Positions 15,565 to 54,138 of a DNA stretch of 64,000 nt are shown here, one piece after another. The notes beneath the pieces were generated by a model, which saw nothing but the letters and a program-made list of their open reading frames with translations, was not told the origin of the DNA and did no database searches. Both the position numbers and the translations under genes were made by a program. Source of the stretch: an uncultured Chthonomonadaceae bacterium (lineage in GTDB: Bacteria > Armatimonadota > Chthonomonadetes > Chthonomonadales > Chthonomonadaceae). The stretch lies in contig CAWIEK010000016.1 in the NCBI GenBank assembly GCA_963835065.1, positions 32,001 to 96,000 of the forward strand, given 5' to 3'. Position 1 is the stretch's first letter, and every line of letters starts with the position of its first letter.

Positions 15565-25702
<10,138 letters not shown>

Positions 25703-44924: not shown

Positions 44925-45914
44925 TCACAAACCTACTTCGGATGCGGCGTTTTCGCGGAACAGCGAGCCTTCGCGGATGTAGCGGCGTACCATGTTGACA
45001 TTCGCGTGTCCTGTCTGCTGCATGATGGCGCGTTCCGAAACGCCCGCCTGCGCCGCGCTGGTTGCCAGTCCCGCCCGCAGACTGTGGCCGGCATATTGCG
45101 CCGCGTCCAAGCCTGCCGCCCGCGCCGTCTTTTGTACAATCAGCGCAACCGAGCGGTCCGACAGGGCGCGGGGCAGGATATGGCCGTGCTTGTTGATGGG
45201 GCGAAACAAGGGCCCGGCCTCGATGTTCGCCACATTCAGCCAGGCTTGCAGGGAACGCACGGGGCAGGTATGCGGCTTGGAGCCATACGGTATCCCGATC
45301 TTGCGCCCCTGCCCCTCCTGATCGGTCTTGCTCCGCCGCAGCGTGACGGTAATGCCTTCGGTTGCAATAATAATATCTGAGCGCGTCAGGCTGACAAGTT
45401 CGGAGCGGCGAAACGCGCCCGCGAAGCCGAGCAGCAGCAGGGCGCGATCCCGGATTCCCGTCGGCGTGGGCGGCAGGGTGTCCACCATGCGGCGAATGTC
45501 GGCGGTGAGCGTGGGCGCTTTGCCTTCATACGCGGTTCCCTTGACGCGCCGGATGCCCGCCCACGTCGCCCGCACAATGGCTTCCTGTGTCGGCGTCGCG
45601 TGTCCCGCTGCCTGATGCGCCTGCGAAATAGAACTTAATCGCCGCTGCAAGGTGCTGCATTTGTGGGTATCGGCCAGCATGGTCAAGTACAGCGCGACGG
45701 TTTCCGGCGCGGCGGGTAAGGGAACAAGATCGTGCTGCGCGCACCAGGCGGTAAAATGGTTCCAATCTGCCCGGTAGCCGCGCAGGGTATTGGCCGCCCG
45801 CGCCTGCTCCACATACGCCCGCGCCTGCTTCCCCGCCTGCTTGAGTTCTTCCGAAATGGCAGGCAGGTGGTTTTCCGCTTCAACAACTTCAACAATGGTA
45901 ATTTCCGTACTCAT
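44925..45914 (-). CDS. tyrosine recombinase (site-specific integrase/resolvase)
   Basis: NTLRGYRADW, RDRALLLLGFAGAFRRSEL, RSKTDQEG, GHSLRAG, TGH...RY. Confidence 0.95.
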   Translation of the reverse strand: MSTEITIVEVVEAENHLPAISEELKQAGKQARAYVEQARAANTLRGYRADWNHFTAWCAQHDLVPLPAAPETVALYLTMLADTHKCSTLQRRLSSISQAHQAAGHATPTQEAIVRATWAGIRRVKGTAYEGKAPTLTADIRRMVDTLPPTPTGIRDRALLLLGFAGAFRRSELVSLTRSDIIIATEGITVTLRRSKTDQEGQGRKIGIPYGSKPHTCPVRSLQAWLNVANIEAGPLFRPINKHGHILPRALSDRSVALIVQKTARAAGLDAAQYAGHSLRAGLATSAAQAGVSERAIMQQTGHANVNMVRRYIREGSLFRENAASEVGL

Positions 45915-48577: not shown

Positions 48578-48605
48578 AAAAGTGTCCATTCAAATGGACA
48601 CTTTT
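48578..48605. promoter_or_regulatory. palindrome 1, candidate parS
   Basis: aaaagtgtccatt-ca-aatggacactttt just downstream of parB. Confidence 0.65.
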
Positions 48606-48682
48606 AGCGCTCCACAAGGTATTTTGACCTTAAATCGCGTTCGTCACGCTTACTACCCTGCTTACAAAGCCGGTTACGTTGC

Positions 48683-48714
48683 GCAAAAGTGTCCATTTGA
48701 ATGGACACTTTTGC
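48683..48714. promoter_or_regulatory. palindrome 2, candidate parS
   Basis: gcaaaagtgtccatt-tg-aatggacacttttgc, 6 nt past the parB stop. Confidence 0.65.
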
Positions 48715-48720
48715 TGATTA

Positions 48721-49782
48721 TTACGCTTTCATCTCCACGACTTTCGCTTGTTCTATGGCGTCGGCGAGTACGGATTTTTCCTCTTCCGTCAGCGTGTTGG
48801 ATACCAGAGCCTCTACGATCCAGCGCACTTCCGGGCGAAGCTGCGGGGATTGCGAGAAGGTGACGGAGGTGGATTGACGTGGGCGCGTGGTGCGCAGTCG
48901 CTCGCCTTTTGGCGCGGAAAAGGGATGCGGGCGCTCTTCGGCTACGGACAAATCCGTATTCGCGCCCAACGCCTGCCTTGCCAGCAAATGCTGTCGCACC
49001 TGTGACACGGACAGGCCGTAGCTTCCCGTGCGGCGCTCACTGGGGCGAGCGGCCTGCTCCGCAAGCGTGAGCAGTTCCTCCTTTTGCAGCAGGCCCTGCG
49101 CGCGCTGGAGCATGATGCCGTGACTGCCGGACAAGCGCCCCGCTTCGATCAGATCGGCAATGGACTCCGGCAGTTCGGCCAGATGGAACAGGTCGTGGAT
49201 GCGCGAGCGGCCCAGGCCCACTTCCGAGGCAATGTCTTCCCACGTCGTTTTCGGGTTTTGGGATTTACGCAGTTCGTACAGGCGGCGCAGGGCGCGGCCT
49301 TTTTCGATGTCGGTCAGTTCCGCGCGCAGCACGTTTTCGGCAAGCTGCGCGGCCTGCACTTCATCATCCGTGAGGGCGCGAATACGAGCGGGAATCCGCA
49401 CTTTGCCCGCAAGCCGCGCGGCCCGCCAGCGCCGCTCCCCTGCTACCAGCCGGTACGCTTCGCCGGGCTGAATGGGCGGGCGCACCAGAATGGGCTGCAG
49501 TACGCCGCGCCGGGCAATGTCATCGGCAAGCGCCTGCAAATCGGACGTGTCGAAGTGGCGGCGAGGCTGCGCGGGATCGGGCATGATTTCGTCGAGCAAT
49601 AGGTCGCGGGCATCGGTTGCCACGCCCGCATGCGCAAGGTCGCCCTCGTTGAGCAGATTGGCCGCAGCCGCAACCGTTTGCGACATTCCTTCCCGGCTGC
49701 GGGTTCTCGCCCGCGTCGCAGTGGTGGCCGGGGCGCGCTCCGGCGTGGCGGGCGCGTTAGTTTCCGCAGATTTCGGTAACAC
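48721..49782 (-). CDS. parB: ParB/RepB/Spo0J partition protein
   Basis: QPRRHF, GVLQPILVRP, LVAGERRWRAA, LAENVLRAEL; GTG start after GAGGAGG overlaps the parA end. Confidence 0.93.
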   Translation of the reverse strand: MLPKSAETNAPATPERAPATTATRARTRSREGMSQTVAAAANLLNEGDLAHAGVATDARDLLLDEIMPDPAQPRRHFDTSDLQALADDIARRGVLQPILVRPPIQPGEAYRLVAGERRWRAARLAGKVRIPARIRALTDDEVQAAQLAENVLRAELTDIEKGRALRRLYELRKSQNPKTTWEDIASEVGLGRSRIHDLFHLAELPESIADLIEAGRLSGSHGIMLQRAQGLLQKEELLTLAEQAARPSERRTGSYGLSVSQVRQHLLARQALGANTDLSVAEERPHPFSAPKGERLRTTRPRQSTSVTFSQSPQLRPEVRWIVEALVSNTLTEEEKSVLADAIEQAKVVEMKA

Positions 49783-50740
49783 TGTGTACCACCTCCTCGG
49801 CAAGCGCATAAAAGTGTTCGGCTTCCGGCAGGCCGGAAAACACGACCGGGTGACGCGCAGCGGTAGACCCGTCCACAGCCGTGCGTTCGGGAATAATCGT
49901 CTGGAACATGCGCCGCCCGAAAATCGAAGTGGTCATTTCGATAATCGCGCTGGCGTTGGCGGTTGTTAATCGCTGCCGGTTGAGGACGCCACCCAAAACG
50001 TGGATCGGATGCCGCGACAGTTCCGCGCAGCCCTTGCGGGTGTTGAGCAATTGCCGGACGCCTTCGAGGGAAAACGCGCCGTCTATGGGAATTAGAATCG
50101 CATCCGAAGCCACCATCGCGTTGATGGACAGCAGGCCGAGCGAGGGCGGCGCGTCAATCAGCACAAAGTCAAATTCGCTGCGCATAGATTCGAGCGCCTT
50201 ATCCAGTTTCATTTCCCGGCCAAGCGCGTTGTGCAGCATCATTTCCGCGGCGGCTAAATTCAGGTGGGAGGGCGCAAGGCGCAGGTTGGGATGGTATGTC
50301 ACCGTCCGCACCACCTCGGCAAGCGCGCGGGTCGGGCCTGTCGCTTCGTAGCCGATCACGTCCGCAATGGAACTTTCCACGTCGTTCCACAGCACGTCCA
50401 GCCCGAAGGAGCAGTTGGCCTGCGGGTCGAAGTCCACGATCAACACGCGATATCCGTTCATGGCAAGCGCGCCGGCAAGGTTGATGGTGATGGTGGTTTT
50501 GCCCACGCCCCCCTTCTGGTTTACGAGGGCGATAGTCGTGGTTCCCTTGCGCTTTTTCCCGCCCAGCATTTCGCGGATGCGGTCTATGTCCTCCTGCGTG
50601 TACAGGCGGCGATTTCCGGCGCGACGCGATGCCCCGCCGTCGCCGCGTCGTTCCAGTCGCCGCAGCGTGTCGGGCGTCACGCCCAGAACGTCGGCGGCTT
50701 GCGTGACCGTAAGATTTTCTACCGGACGGCGTAGTGTCAT
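49757..50740 (-). CDS. parA: ParA ATPase with N-terminal MerR-type HTH
   Basis: LTVTQAADVLGVTPDTLRRLE; NQKGGVGKTT; DFDPQAN; IDAPPSLG. Confidence 0.95.
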   Translation of the reverse strand: MTLRRPVENLTVTQAADVLGVTPDTLRRLERRGDGGASRRAGNRRLYTQEDIDRIREMLGGKKRKGTTTIALVNQKGGVGKTTITINLAGALAMNGYRVLIVDFDPQANCSFGLDVLWNDVESSIADVIGYEATGPTRALAEVVRTVTYHPNLRLAPSHLNLAAAEMMLHNALGREMKLDKALESMRSEFDFVLIDAPPSLGLLSINAMVASDAILIPIDGAFSLEGVRQLLNTRKGCAELSRHPIHVLGGVLNRQRLTTANASAIIEMTTSIFGRRMFQTIIPERTAVDGSTAARHPVVFSGLPEAEHFYALAEEVVHSVTEICGN

Positions 50741-51273
50741 GGGCTTCCTTTCTCAAATTCAGGGTTTATAGGGTTTTAGGGTTCCAGTGTTTTAGGTGTT
50801 CGGTGTTCAGGTATTCGGGTGTTCGGGAACAGCATTGGCGCGGTTGGCAGAATTGGTGTTTCGTTCTGCGGGGTATGTTGCTGTGTTCTGGCTACTGTGT
50901 TCGCGGAGCGCAGGGAAATCTCCTGCTATTTTCTTGGAAAAATATCGTGAGATGAACGCAATCGCATTTCCACGCCTTCACGCCAAAGTTTCAGACCGTT
51001 TTTGCCCTTGAGATGCGTTATTTTGCGGCATGTTTACAGCATGGAACTCGCAAAATATGGCGTTTGGTGTCGTGATGCTGTAATGTCCGCTTGCTCCGCC
51101 ATGCAGATTCTTCCTCATTTTTTCGATGCTGGAAAAGCGTTGTCAGGCCAAAGAACGCGAATTAAGGCATTGAGTTAGTGGCTGGTATGGCTGCAGGTAT
51201 TTGCAGGCAAAGTGTAAATGGCTATGTTTTTCAACCAACCACCAACCACCAATCACCAATTACCAGCCACCAA

Positions 51274-53235
51274 CTACTCCTCCCGAAGCGGCGTGGAATT
51301 GTGCGCGGCGTCCCATTGCCAGAAGTCGGGAACGCCGGGCAGTTTGTTGTCGCGCACGAACGCCAGGAACCGCTCCACGCGCTGTTCGGGCAGGTCGAAA
51401 CCGCGAAAAATCTCCGCCGACTGCTCGGATTTGGACGCCCGATCCTGCCAGAATTTGCGCATCTTCTGCTCGTAAACCAAAAATGCGCTGTAAGCCGCTG
51501 GGAAGGCCGTTTCACCCCCCTGAACCAGTAAGTTACCCAAGAACGCGGTATATGCCCCGTAAAACGCCTCCTGATGGCCTTTACGGGCATTGCTGCGCCG
51601 CGCCTTGCCCGACTTTTGCGCTGATTTGGCGTATTCCGCGCCCGCCGCCGCTTCGTACTGCAAAATTCCGCCGAAGGTCTGGATGTCGAAACGGGTCTTT
51701 TGCGCCTGCCGGTGGGCGAACGCGATCAGGTACTGCGCCCCTTCCAGGCCGAGCCGCTCCAGCACATCCTGCGCCTGCGCCAATTCGCGGGGCGTGGGGC
51801 GGGCGGTCGTGCCGGTGTGGTGGAACGTCTCGTAAAACCGCCGCGCCAATTCCAGCGCGGGAGTTTCCGCGGACGGGTCCAGGAGGGAGGAGGGAGGCAC
51901 TGTCTCAGCCATAGGTTCGGCGGCAGTGGTTTCAGCCGCAGGAGTTTCCCCGGCGGTAACTGCATCGGCAACGGTTGCATCCGCTGTGATTGCGTCCGCT
52001 GTGATTGCGTTGGCAGGGGTTGGCGCAATGACCGGCTGCGCGTCGGGGGCCGGTTCCGTCCATGCGTCCATTTCGGCGGGGGGTGACAGGAACACAGGTT
52101 CTTCTACCATCAAGGGCAATGTGATTTGATCGCCCGCTTGTTGTCCCAATGTTTGCTCAGTTGCCTGTCCGTCCGCTGAAGGCGTTGCCGTCAACTGCGC
52201 GGACGCTGCGTTTTGCGCGGATGTGGATTTTGCCGATTGCCGTTCCGTCGTGGCTGTTTCCGCCGCAAGCCGCTGTGACGCTTCCAGCGCGCTGCGCTCG
52301 GCTTCGCGCCGTTTGCGGGCATTGACGCCGGGAAACGCGAACGCAAGCTGCTCGTTGCGGGCTTTGGAGCCGGGAGTGCAAAGCATGATCCAGTCGGGGC
52401 TGCCGTCGCTGTCAGTCGTGGCCTCGTACTCCACGCCCGTGATGTACCCGGAGCGCAAATGGGGACGCAGAACTTTGTACATCTGTTTTTTCATGTGGTC
52501 AAAATCCGTGCAGCGAACCTGCGTGGAGAGGGCGCAGTATTCCGAATATACCAATCTTGCGCGTTGATTATATTTTAACGCGGGCAAAATCTGATAACTG
52601 ATAATTTCATAAAAACGCTGCTCGGAAGGCGCTAGGTCGCGCAGGTAGTCGTAATCCAGCGGACGCAGCAGGGCGTTGTTAAGAACATCTACGTAGATGT
52701 CGTTGAGCAGCAGGTACACGGCGTCGGCTTTATGGCCGTCCGGCAGCAGTTCGCCGGTGAAGATCACGCTGTAGCGGGAAAACGCGGCTTCCAGCGACCG
52801 CTCGGCCTTATCCGTCGTTCGGTAGGTGATGCGGGCGTTGATAAACGCGCTGGCGTTTTGCAGCAGAGCCTTCTTGACCGAGTGCGTATTTTTCTCGCCG
52901 GCCAGAACCTGCGTGGCGACTTCGCGCAGGCTGCCCAGCCGAATCAGTTTGGGCACGGGCTTGCCGGCTTCTTCAATGCGGCGGTTGATGATGATGGTGT
53001 CCAGCTTGTAGGCCAATCGTCCGGGCGGGCCGTAGCGGCTGTTGTACGAAACCTCCCAACTCAGCACCGTCGCGCCATGTTCGTCCTTGCGCTTGATTTC
53101 GATGCGAACGCCGTCTTTGGTGGACAGGTTGTGGATAGGATAGCGCGACAAAGCGGTTTCGCTGCGAATGATTTCCAGCGGAACCAATTCGGCTTCCAAT
53201 TCCGGGGTTTCCGTGCCAAAAAGAGCCAGATCCAT
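51274..53235 (-). CDS. putative plasmid/chromid replication initiator protein
   Basis: ETALSRYPIHNLS..., PLDYDYLRDL...RFYEIISY resemble RepA-type initiators; lies between the iterons and parA in the same orientation; Ala/Pro/Thr linker. Confidence 0.7.
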   Translation of the reverse strand: MDLALFGTETPELEAELVPLEIIRSETALSRYPIHNLSTKDGVRIEIKRKDEHGATVLSWEVSYNSRYGPPGRLAYKLDTIIINRRIEEAGKPVPKLIRLGSLREVATQVLAGEKNTHSVKKALLQNASAFINARITYRTTDKAERSLEAAFSRYSVIFTGELLPDGHKADAVYLLLNDIYVDVLNNALLRPLDYDYLRDLAPSEQRFYEIISYQILPALKYNQRARLVYSEYCALSTQVRCTDFDHMKKQMYKVLRPHLRSGYITGVEYEATTDSDGSPDWIMLCTPGSKARNEQLAFAFPGVNARKRREAERSALEASQRLAAETATTERQSAKSTSAQNAASAQLTATPSADGQATEQTLGQQAGDQITLPLMVEEPVFLSPPAEMDAWTEPAPDAQPVIAPTPANAITADAITADATVADAVTAGETPAAETTAAEPMAETVPPSSLLDPSAETPALELARRFYETFHHTGTTARPTPRELAQAQDVLERLGLEGAQYLIAFAHRQAQKTRFDIQTFGGILQYEAAAGAEYAKSAQKSGKARRSNARKGHQEAFYGAYTAFLGNLLVQGGETAFPAAYSAFLVYEQKMRKFWQDRASKSEQSAEIFRGFDLPEQRVERFLAFVRDNKLPGVPDFWQWDAAHNSTPLREE

Positions 53236-53412
53236 GGGGTTAATCCTCAGCAAAAATTTCAACACACACACTCTGCCCTCGCGCGCGCATACGCGAAGTG
53301 TGTGTGTATTTAGAGTCTAAGAGTCGTATTAAGAGTCTAATAGTTAACGGAATTTTCAAAGGCGATTTTATATGCTTTCCGAGAAGGAAATGGTGATTTT
53401 AGATACAAGTGG

Positions 53413-53603
53413 TCGTCTCCCGAATTAAGGCGATTCGTCTCCCGAATTAAGGCGCCTCGTCTCCCGAATTAAGGCGATTCGTCTCCCGAATTAAGGCACC
53501 CCTCCAAAATGAGGGGCTGCGTCTCCCGAATTAAGGCGCCTTAATTCGAGTTCAAAACCGCCTTAATTCGGGAGACGATTGCCAAATATCCCGAATTAAG
53601 GCA
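53413..53603. repeat. iteron array (CGTCTCCCGAATTAAGGC)
   Basis: Four tandem copies at 22-bp period from 53413, a fifth at 53520, an inverted copy at 53559-53578 and partial copies. Confidence 0.9.
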
Positions 53604-53875
53604 GGTAAATGTGCTTGCAAATTTCCGCGCAACATCAGGCATTACAGATTAATTTTTCATGCCTGATAACACTAATCTAACCATAACTATAGGGCGTTCG
53701 GAATGGCTGTGAACGTACACAATTGTACATCTTTTTGGCTGTTTTTCCGCCACTTGCCGCTACGATTTTTCCGGCATGGTTTTGCAACGCTTAACGGCGA
53801 AGATTACCTGCCTTAACGTTTGCTGAAATGATGTACAAGCGGGCGTTCATTACATCTGCAAGGATGAGTCCGTCA

Positions 53876-54049
53876 TGTCTTGAACCATGATTTATGTGAT
53901 TAGGATGATTATCATGATTCCTGAATGTTGCCTGTGCTTGAATGATAAAGTTGTATGATGAACAAGAGTGTGATTACAGGAAGGCTGTCAGGAACGCGCC
54001 TGCTTCATCATGGTAATCGGCCTAATCCTGTAAATCATGGTTCAAGACA
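53876..54049. repeat. MITE-like element, copy C
   Basis: tgtcttgaaccatgatttatgtgatt ... taaatcatggttcaagaca. Confidence 0.85.
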
Positions 54050-54106
54050 AGCAACGCCCCGTTATTTGAAGCGCAGGATGGTATCTGTTTGCTTATACAG
54101 TTACAT

Positions 54107-54138
54107 GAGAAAGTGTCCATTCAAATGGACACTTTCTC
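54107..54138. promoter_or_regulatory. palindrome 3, candidate parS
   Basis: gagaaagtgtccatt-ca-aatggacactttctc. Confidence 0.65.

Follow-up and report, generated by a model that had tools for sequence, protein, structure and literature searches.

Gene organization of the locus

The window analysed here, a stretch of 64,000 bp, covers positions 32001-96000 of contig C16 in G000, the metagenome-assembled genome (MAG) of an uncultured Chthonomonadaceae bacterium of the phylum Armatimonadota (8.0 Mb, 71 contigs, 91.9% complete). At 48578-54138 it carries what appears to be the replication and partition module of a secondary replicon. Three genes lie there on the minus strand: rep (51274-53235), which from its ATG start encodes a putative replication initiator of 653 aa; parA (49757-50740), which encodes a type Ia Walker ATPase with an N-terminal MerR-type helix-turn-helix (HTH) and an AAA_31 domain; and parB (48721-49809), whose product has a ParB_N domain (GERRWRA motif at residue 124) and an HTH. 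An earlier note on this DNA had described the co-oriented genes as the origin of a domesticated second replicon driven by an uncharacterized initiator of about 650 aa. This description is supported by the predicted fold of the initiator, the iterons and closed-plasmid locations of its homologs and the presence of the region on a separate contig in a congener. Two congeners were used for comparison: G001 (three contigs, 97% complete) and G002, the closest congener and third MAG of the genus (80% complete).

Among the 134 open reading frames (ORFs) called on C16, none matched dnaA, relaxase, phage, ribosomal-protein or RNA-polymerase core models (E-value ≤ 1e-8), which extends to the contig the earlier finding that the window has no dnaA, conjugation or phage genes, and no tRNA was found on C16. 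The dnaA gene of G000 is on C68, and two other parB genes are on C43 and C37. C16 has a GC content of 57%. The surrounding DNA shares repeat families with the host, as previously noted: two intergenic families from the window have 73 and 106 matches on 24 and 25 G000 contigs, respectively.

Iterons and AT-rich tracts

Six exact copies of an 18-bp iteron span 53414-53577, upstream of rep. Five are direct repeats on the minus strand (53414-53537), four of them at a 22-bp period and the fifth 40 bp further on. The sixth (53560-53577) is inverted and, together with a degenerate copy three mismatches from the 18-mer (53585-53602), forms a candidate autorepression operator (53560-53602); alignment shows an inverted upstream copy in some homolog origins as well. 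None of 100 shuffled sequences gave any iteron match, and the 18-mer was not found elsewhere in the G000 genome at up to two mismatches.

The AT-rich tracts reported upstream of rep are real though modest, at 64% and 60% AT compared with about 43% for the contig. The first, between the iterons and rep (53290-53412, minus strand, 64%), contains short TAGACT-type repeats at 53306-53345 and is a candidate DNA-unwinding element. The second, upstream of the iterons (53600-53740, 60%), is a possible rep promoter region; a promoter scan upstream of rep gave a promoter-like site at 53713-53686, the count in the region being not above chance. In 34 of 36 homolog loci, the AT content of the rep-proximal tract exceeded that of a distal control, and a TAGACT-type motif occurred at least twice in 15/36 rep-proximal tracts compared with 0/36 distal controls. 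Judged from composition, an AT-rich unwinding element appears to be present beside the iterons.

Whether homologs of rep have upstream iterons of their own, a check proposed in the earlier note, was examined in the window, the G001 locus and 94 homolog loci (96 in all), and upstream DNA was sufficient in 78 of them. Arrays with a 22- or 23-bp period were found upstream of the gene in 75 of these 78, mostly about 200-300 bp before rep, and the remaining three also peak at period 22, just below threshold. Arrays were found in 2/78 loci downstream of the gene and in 0/96 inside it, and after clustering at 90% they were found upstream in 56 of 58 loci. That this is a genuine replication origin is close to certain.

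The Rep initiator

Rep matched no family in Pfam or NCBIfam, in keeping with its description as uncharacterized, and is assigned here to an unnamed family remotely related to RPA (PF10134). An alternative in-frame GTG at 53271 would extend the protein to 665 aa; close homologs begin at the ATG. The family comprises 619 representative clusters at E-value ≤ 1e-10. An AlphaFold model was built from 116 sequences, with a predicted local distance difference test (pLDDT) score mostly >90 in residues 31-290, and its top Foldseek match was RctB domains 2-3 (E-value: 9e-7). In VIA-align comparisons, residues 18-294 (52354-53184, minus strand) aligned with RepE54 at Z 13.6 (root mean square deviation 3.7, 210 aligned), with pi at Z 13.2 and with RctB domains 2-3 at Z 12.4, while the next unrelated fold scored Z 6.2. 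The model thus has the winged-helix initiator fold for which the earlier note proposed a search, and the structural alignment predicts that this tandem winged-helix region is the iteron-binding part of the protein.

At the sequence level, nothing significant was found among PDB sequences, and the 116-sequence profile recovered no RctB at E-value ≤ 10. Profile-profile comparison with the RPA initiators of the G001-type clade gave a probability of 99.9% (E-value: 1.6e-34). None of 108 scanned Rep family members exceeded the RPA gathering cut-off of Pfam, and 12 of the 108 had weak RPA matches. Homologs with 52-53% identity are present on the closed plasmids pSINAC03 and PALBO2, where they are annotated as hypothetical; the excerpts of PMC5352709 considered here name no initiator for either plasmid.

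The C-terminal helical domain of Rep (residues 451-653; 51277-51885, minus strand) is common to three Rep N-domain clades. Its predicted fold had no Foldseek match at E-value ≤ 0.001 (best Z 6.0), and the scores of DnaD-like domains (Z 4.4-4.7) lie within noise. That this domain recruits the helicase is a guess, for which the sole aid is one Rep homolog that ends in a DnaA N-terminal domain. The third N-domain clade (P0156-P0158, P0161), which is without a Pfam match, has the same C-terminal domain. Separately, a 43-kb metagenome contig (L149/L151) bears Rep and iterons at both ends and is therefore probably a complete circular plasmid.

Partition system and recombinase

Identical palindromes on both flanks of the genes, as the earlier note reported, were found at 48578-48605, 48685-48712 and, upstream of the origin, 54109-54136. 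These parS-like sites share a 26-bp palindrome (starting at 48579, 48686 and 54110) that does not occur elsewhere in the G000 genome at up to four mismatches, and no canonical chromosomal parS was found near the locus. The 26-mer is present exactly in 2 of 401 genomes of the phylum (G000 and G001) and in a two-mismatch form in two more, and the palindrome co-varies with ParA orthologs in four other genomes. The best NCBIfam model for ParA is plasmid-partitioning RepA, below cut-off. By sequence, the HTH-bearing ParA, CTP-motif ParB and nearby palindromes have the layout of a type Ia ParABS system.

ParA orthologs (75-79% identity) with variant parS sites occur in three other genomes of the family and one more distant genome, on short contigs with neither the G000 nor the G001 type of Rep; the partition module therefore also travels with other partners. 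The MerR-ParA ortholog loci are L228-L231 (G016:C177, G032:C381, G031:C430 and G264:C218, respectively). In G031 and G264, different unannotated ORFs follow parB, one of which has a weak DnaA_N domain at its end and repeats close by; these ORFs may be further initiator types.

A tyrosine recombinase gene at 44925-45914 (minus strand) has no paralog elsewhere in G000 and has an ortholog (79% identity) approximately 2 kb from the origin on the corresponding G001 contig. The encoded protein is a candidate dimer resolvase of the replicon.

A separate replicon in the congener G001

In G001, dnaA and two parB genes are located on the 6.15-Mb contig C2, while both flanks of the G000 origin map to the 326-kb contig C3. 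Of the 134 C16 genes, 38 map to C3 at ≥55% identity and are spread over C16 from 4 to 166 kb, while other G000 contigs have at most seven C3 orthologs each. C3 has the identical 26-bp palindrome on both sides of parAB. It has no exact terminal repeat, and circularity was judged from a gene split between the contig ends: each end of C3 carries part of one BTAD/NB-ARC regulator gene, in the order of six G000 paralogs, and for this reason C3 looks, and probably is, circular. In its strand-corrected skew, the best half-split is at 206 kb, 16 kb from the iterons. The origin (222 kb) is in the top 8% of skew positions and 0 of 2000 gene permutations were as high, although significance is overstated because genes are taken as independent in the permutation. 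An independent sequencing run holds the G000 locus at about 95% identity with the same gene order. Physical separateness from the dnaA chromosome is supported for C3, whereas C16 is unclosed.

A six-gene block of C3 is present at G000:C15:93785-100423, 3 kb from a tmRNA gene on a chromosomal contig, which indicates gene flow between the replicons.

Composition and core genes

Three characteristics of chromids, taken from the portions of PMC6090056 and PMC12456017 used here, were considered: plasmid-type replication and partition, host-like composition and carriage of core genes. The GC contents of replicon and chromosome are 57.2% and 57.0% in G000 and 60.4% and 60.2% in G001 (11 sampled 20-kb stretches). 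The dinucleotide distance between replicon and chromosome is 14 in G000, at the upper end of the range for G000 contigs >100 kb (4-14), and 11 in G001, compared with 58-76 for three ordinary plasmid-sized contigs of 89-115 kb.

Aspartate kinase heads the pathway to diaminopimelate (DAP), lysine, threonine and methionine. The enzyme is encoded in all 25 genomes of the family that are ≥90% complete (39 of 42 overall) and in 14 of 14 control genomes. G000 encodes it once, on C16, and G001 once, on C3; each of these genomes has three further AA_kinase matches, none of which scores as an aspartate kinase. The replicon enzyme is about 23-37% identical (in partial alignments) to 27 chromosomal-type copies of the family and forms a separate clade. 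In G013, G023 and G020, lysC immediately precedes the atp operon, while in G001 and G002 a different gene occupies this site, in mid-contig. As asd, dapB and hom are on the G001 chromosome (they are also kept in G002), the pathway needs the aspartate kinase of the replicon. Three further assemblies have close aspartate kinases and Reps on longest contigs of equal size (423,593, 244,369 and 131,466 bp), which is read as co-location.

A second core function shows the same pattern. The gcvPA/PB genes follow gcvT-gcvH in G013 and G023 and are missing from the operon, in mid-contig, in 3/3 congeners; the sole gcvP (glycine decarboxylase P) of G000 and of G001 is of the fused type and is carried on the replicon. 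In G005 and G013, both the aspartate kinase and gcvP functions are chromosomal. In both species, the same gcvP loop contains a short inverted-repeat element (G000:C16:162292-165319, L020; G001:C3:120258-123146) with repeat units that differ between the two genomes; it is in frame in G001 and frameshifted in G000 as assembled.

Because the replicon has the only aspartate kinase and the only gcvP, a chromid is favoured over a dispensable megaplasmid. The replicon appears, by its sequence, to combine all three characteristics, and we put at roughly 0.78 the probability that the locus is the replication-partition module of a likely essential chromid of about 0.2-0.4 Mb in a Chthonomonadaceae-like genus.

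Several observations weigh against this interpretation. There is no GC-skew switch at the C16 origin, raw or strand-corrected, where the earlier note had proposed looking for one near 53.5 kb. C16 is not circular as assembled, another of its proposed checks; it has no terminal repeat, its ends being a repeat and, with C17, a strain-variant overlap. No good DnaA box was found at the origin, where the only two matches, each with two mismatches, are both at the rep start; the consensus was the E. coli box, and that of this phylum may differ. The replicon core genes are xenologs and not translocated orthologs of the chromosomal genes, and in G000 the ancestral kinase site is close to the end of a contig (about 400 bp). 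For the three further assemblies, equal contig sizes are the only sign of co-location. G002 is without the replicon, aspartate kinase, gcvP and also pabB, which G000 keeps on C16; the replicon is thus present in 2/3 genomes of the genus, and the G002 chromosome shows the same two gene losses. Finally, as assembled, the G000 aspartate kinase gene has a 1-base frameshift near codon 35 and gcvP is split. These interruptions are probably assembly errors, because the G000 asd gene is also split, 18 of 107 orthologs show a second-frame match (some of them true gene boundaries) and a 96.8% identical kinase in another assembly has an intact start.

Probable replacement of the initiator between congeners

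Although the partition systems of C16 and C3 are closely related (ParA 87% identity, ParB 60%, identical parS, recombinase 79%), their initiators are not. Shared cargo of the two contigs has a median identity of 70% (49 genes), similar to the chromosomal divergence of the two species (atpB 75%, gcvT 71%). The G001 Rep passes the RPA cut-off and is a true RPA member; it is about 25% identical to the G000 Rep and 24-44% identical to the G000 clade over partial N-domain alignments. Its iterons have their own 22-bp period and are unrelated to the G000 18-mer, and its gene sits after parB, inverted, on the other side of parAB. With parA and parS kept while Rep and iterons differ, the initiator module appears to have been replaced. 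The aspartate kinases form two clades, each paired with one Rep type, and a single replacement of rep and iterons within the genus is therefore simplest.

A domain swap was rejected as the source of the difference in favour of whole-module replacement, because the C-domain identity of the two Reps (43%) is not above that to unrelated plasmid Reps (up to 48%), a supported branch separates the two C-domains and the module has moved. Older shuffling of N- and C-domains among Reps is likely. The closest Rep outside the genus, on the 89-kb low-GC contig G013:C5, has 75% N-domain identity and nearly the same iteron; both Rep types have relatives outside the genus, and the swap could have gone in either direction. 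A TnpB-like ORF, recognized by eye from its translation, lies directly upstream of the G001 iterons (L055:12324-13508), at the edge of the replaced module. The excerpts of PMC9671151, PMC9025767 and PMC5030684 covered here contain no precedent for or against an initiator swap.

Proposed mechanism and history

Based on fold and layout, Rep monomers would bind the 22-bp-spaced iterons on one face of the helix, open the neighbouring AT-rich tract with its TAGACT repeats and bring in the host helicase, possibly by way of the C-terminal domain. Copy number would be kept down by Rep dimers at the inverted repeat and by pairing between iterons. For partition, the three parS palindromes would serve as loading sites for ParB, with ParA moving it, and the tyrosine recombinase encoded nearby would act on dimers and resolve them.

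As for the history of the replicon, an ancestral plasmid may have introduced an aspartate kinase of foreign origin together with a fused gcvP, after which lysC and gcvPA/PB would have disappeared from the chromosome and the plasmid would have become indispensable. Later, one branch of the genus would have exchanged the rep-iteron module and retained parABS and the cargo. We consider it probable, with less confidence than for the chromid itself, that this is an Armatimonadota chromid made essential by a plasmid-borne aspartate kinase that displaced lysC, and that its initiator and iterons were then replaced while the centromere was kept.

Alternative explanations

The origin could be real and the replicon a dispensable megaplasmid, with G002 as a natural plasmid-free strain and plasmid-free cells either scavenging amino acids or DAP or having an unassembled chromosomal kinase. 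The joint absence of replicon and aspartate kinase from G002 fits this proposal, as do the small size of the replicon (326 kb, 5% of the chromosome), its lack of tRNA genes and its fluid cargo, with only 32 of the 219 called C3 genes having a best match of ≥55% on C16. We nevertheless consider it unlikely, given that every well-assembled genome of the family and every control genome has an aspartate kinase, that G002 keeps asd, dapB and hom, and that the G001 chromosome is a single 6.15-Mb contig without the enzyme. The additional absence of pabB from G002 fits a replicon left out of an 80%-complete bin, and an unbinned replicon is a likelier cause of these absences than true loss.

Less likely again is a fusion of the chromid with the main chromosome in G000, which would make the cassette a secondary or silent origin in the dnaA-bearing chromosome. 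Natural chromid-chromosome fusions have reportedly been published. C16 is linear, with its last 18 kb giving no G001 match at E-value ≤ 1e-30, and some C3 blocks are on G000 contigs that bear tRNA or tmRNA genes, such as C15 (seven genes); these points and the absence of a skew switch fit a fusion. However, C3 orthologs are interleaved along nearly the whole of C16, where neither tRNA nor translation genes were found; the Rep gene, the iterons and parABS are all intact, with the same layout in the copy from the independent run; and Reps of the same clade are on contigs of ≤244 kb. That C16 is foreign (a plasmid, a prophage or a mis-binned fragment with no relation to the chromosome of the host) is very improbable, since despite the close Rep relative with near-identical iterons on the plasmid-sized G013:C5 of another genus, C16 has the GC content, dinucleotide signature and repeat families of its host, co-diverges with the chromosome, complements genes lost from it and carries no phage or conjugation genes, and Rep had no match in 50,697 phage records.

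Comparison with known systems

Several known replicons share features with the locus. Mini-F RepE and R6K pi (PDB 1rep, 8aan, 2nra) share with the G000 Rep the tandem winged-helix initiator (Z 13-13.6), and their plasmids share 22-bp-period iterons beside rep, an adjoining AT-rich tract and an inverted copy. In contrast to these proteins, the G000 Rep is 8% identical, is longer by about 350 residues, among them a lineage-specific C-terminal domain, and has no clear DnaA box at its origin. The iterons of Vibrio chromosome 2 (RctB/ori2), which serves as the model for iteron chromids, are GATC-containing 11/12-mers; the G000 18-mer and spacers are without GATC and therefore no Dam/SeqA-type control is apparent. 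That system, as far as the excerpts of PMC6090056 describe it, is alike in fold, iteron origin, own parABS and core-gene replicon, but the G000 Rep has no RctB sequence match, and the replicon is about one third the size and belongs to another phylum. The RPA initiators of Acidobacteria and Planctomycetes plasmids show remote profile homology, and relatives of the G001-type clade are annotated as RepA on 109-476-kb plasmids, yet the G000 Rep has no Pfam match and no member of its family is above the RPA cut-off. The partition system resembles the type Ia systems F SopABC, P1 ParABS and repABC RepA/RepB in HTH ParA, CTP-motif ParB and palindromes, and differs in having its own 26-bp parS. The domesticated LPP-1 and LPP-2 plasmids of Pantoea, in the part of PMC12612815 used here, also show redundancy followed by differential loss, not translocation; here, two losses are placed at syntenic chromosomal sites, one of them affecting the step that opens the aspartate pathway, and the initiator has been exchanged.

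A survey of 36,322 complete genomes found chromids in eight phyla, and the portion of PMC12456017 used here does not list Armatimonadota among them. The string "Armatimon" has no occurrences in the main text, as available, of PMC12456017 and PMC13342612, the supplements of which could list such a replicon. A literature search returned no Armatimonadota chromid, no description of this Rep family and nothing combining chromid, aspartate kinase and essential. Chromids as such are familiar, and so are origins with iterons; this case is set apart by its phylum, by a Rep family that lacks a model, by the mapped displacement of lysC by a xenolog and by the exchange of the initiator.

If correct, the interpretation given here describes the first chromid of Armatimonadota, a natural re-engining of an essential replicon and a Rep family missed by annotation and plasmid typing. 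Both domestication steps have map positions (the lost lysC and gcvPA/PB sites and the replicon that supplies these functions), so that the model of redundancy followed by loss is directly testable. Plasmids are typed by replicase, according to the excerpted text of PMC5030684, and an apparently essential replicon that is defined by parABS and cargo and not by Rep matters for such typing. As the Rep family has no Pfam or NCBIfam model, its replicons escape typing and are lost from MAG bins, which would yield false auxotrophy calls. For vector construction in Armatimonadota and Planctomycetes, the locus is also a candidate origin.

Other features of the genomes

The window contains a very large GH94/glucoamylase locus (15565-25699; cyclic beta-1,2-glucan synthase-like) that is single-copy in G000 and is kept on G001:C3 as one frame of 3,459 aa. 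Elsewhere on C16, at 118-127 kb (L018:6101-15528), genes encoding a caspase-like protein, a TPR-NTPase and two SLATT-domain proteins form a possible defence island that is absent from C3. In G000, 16 tandem tRNA genes at C49:430274-432286, with two more at 447 kb, are perhaps part of an integrated element. The remaining G001 contig, C1 (114,625 bp; L056), is a third replicon; its dinucleotide signature is distinct, and an ORF at 22.5 kb resembles a replisome organizer.

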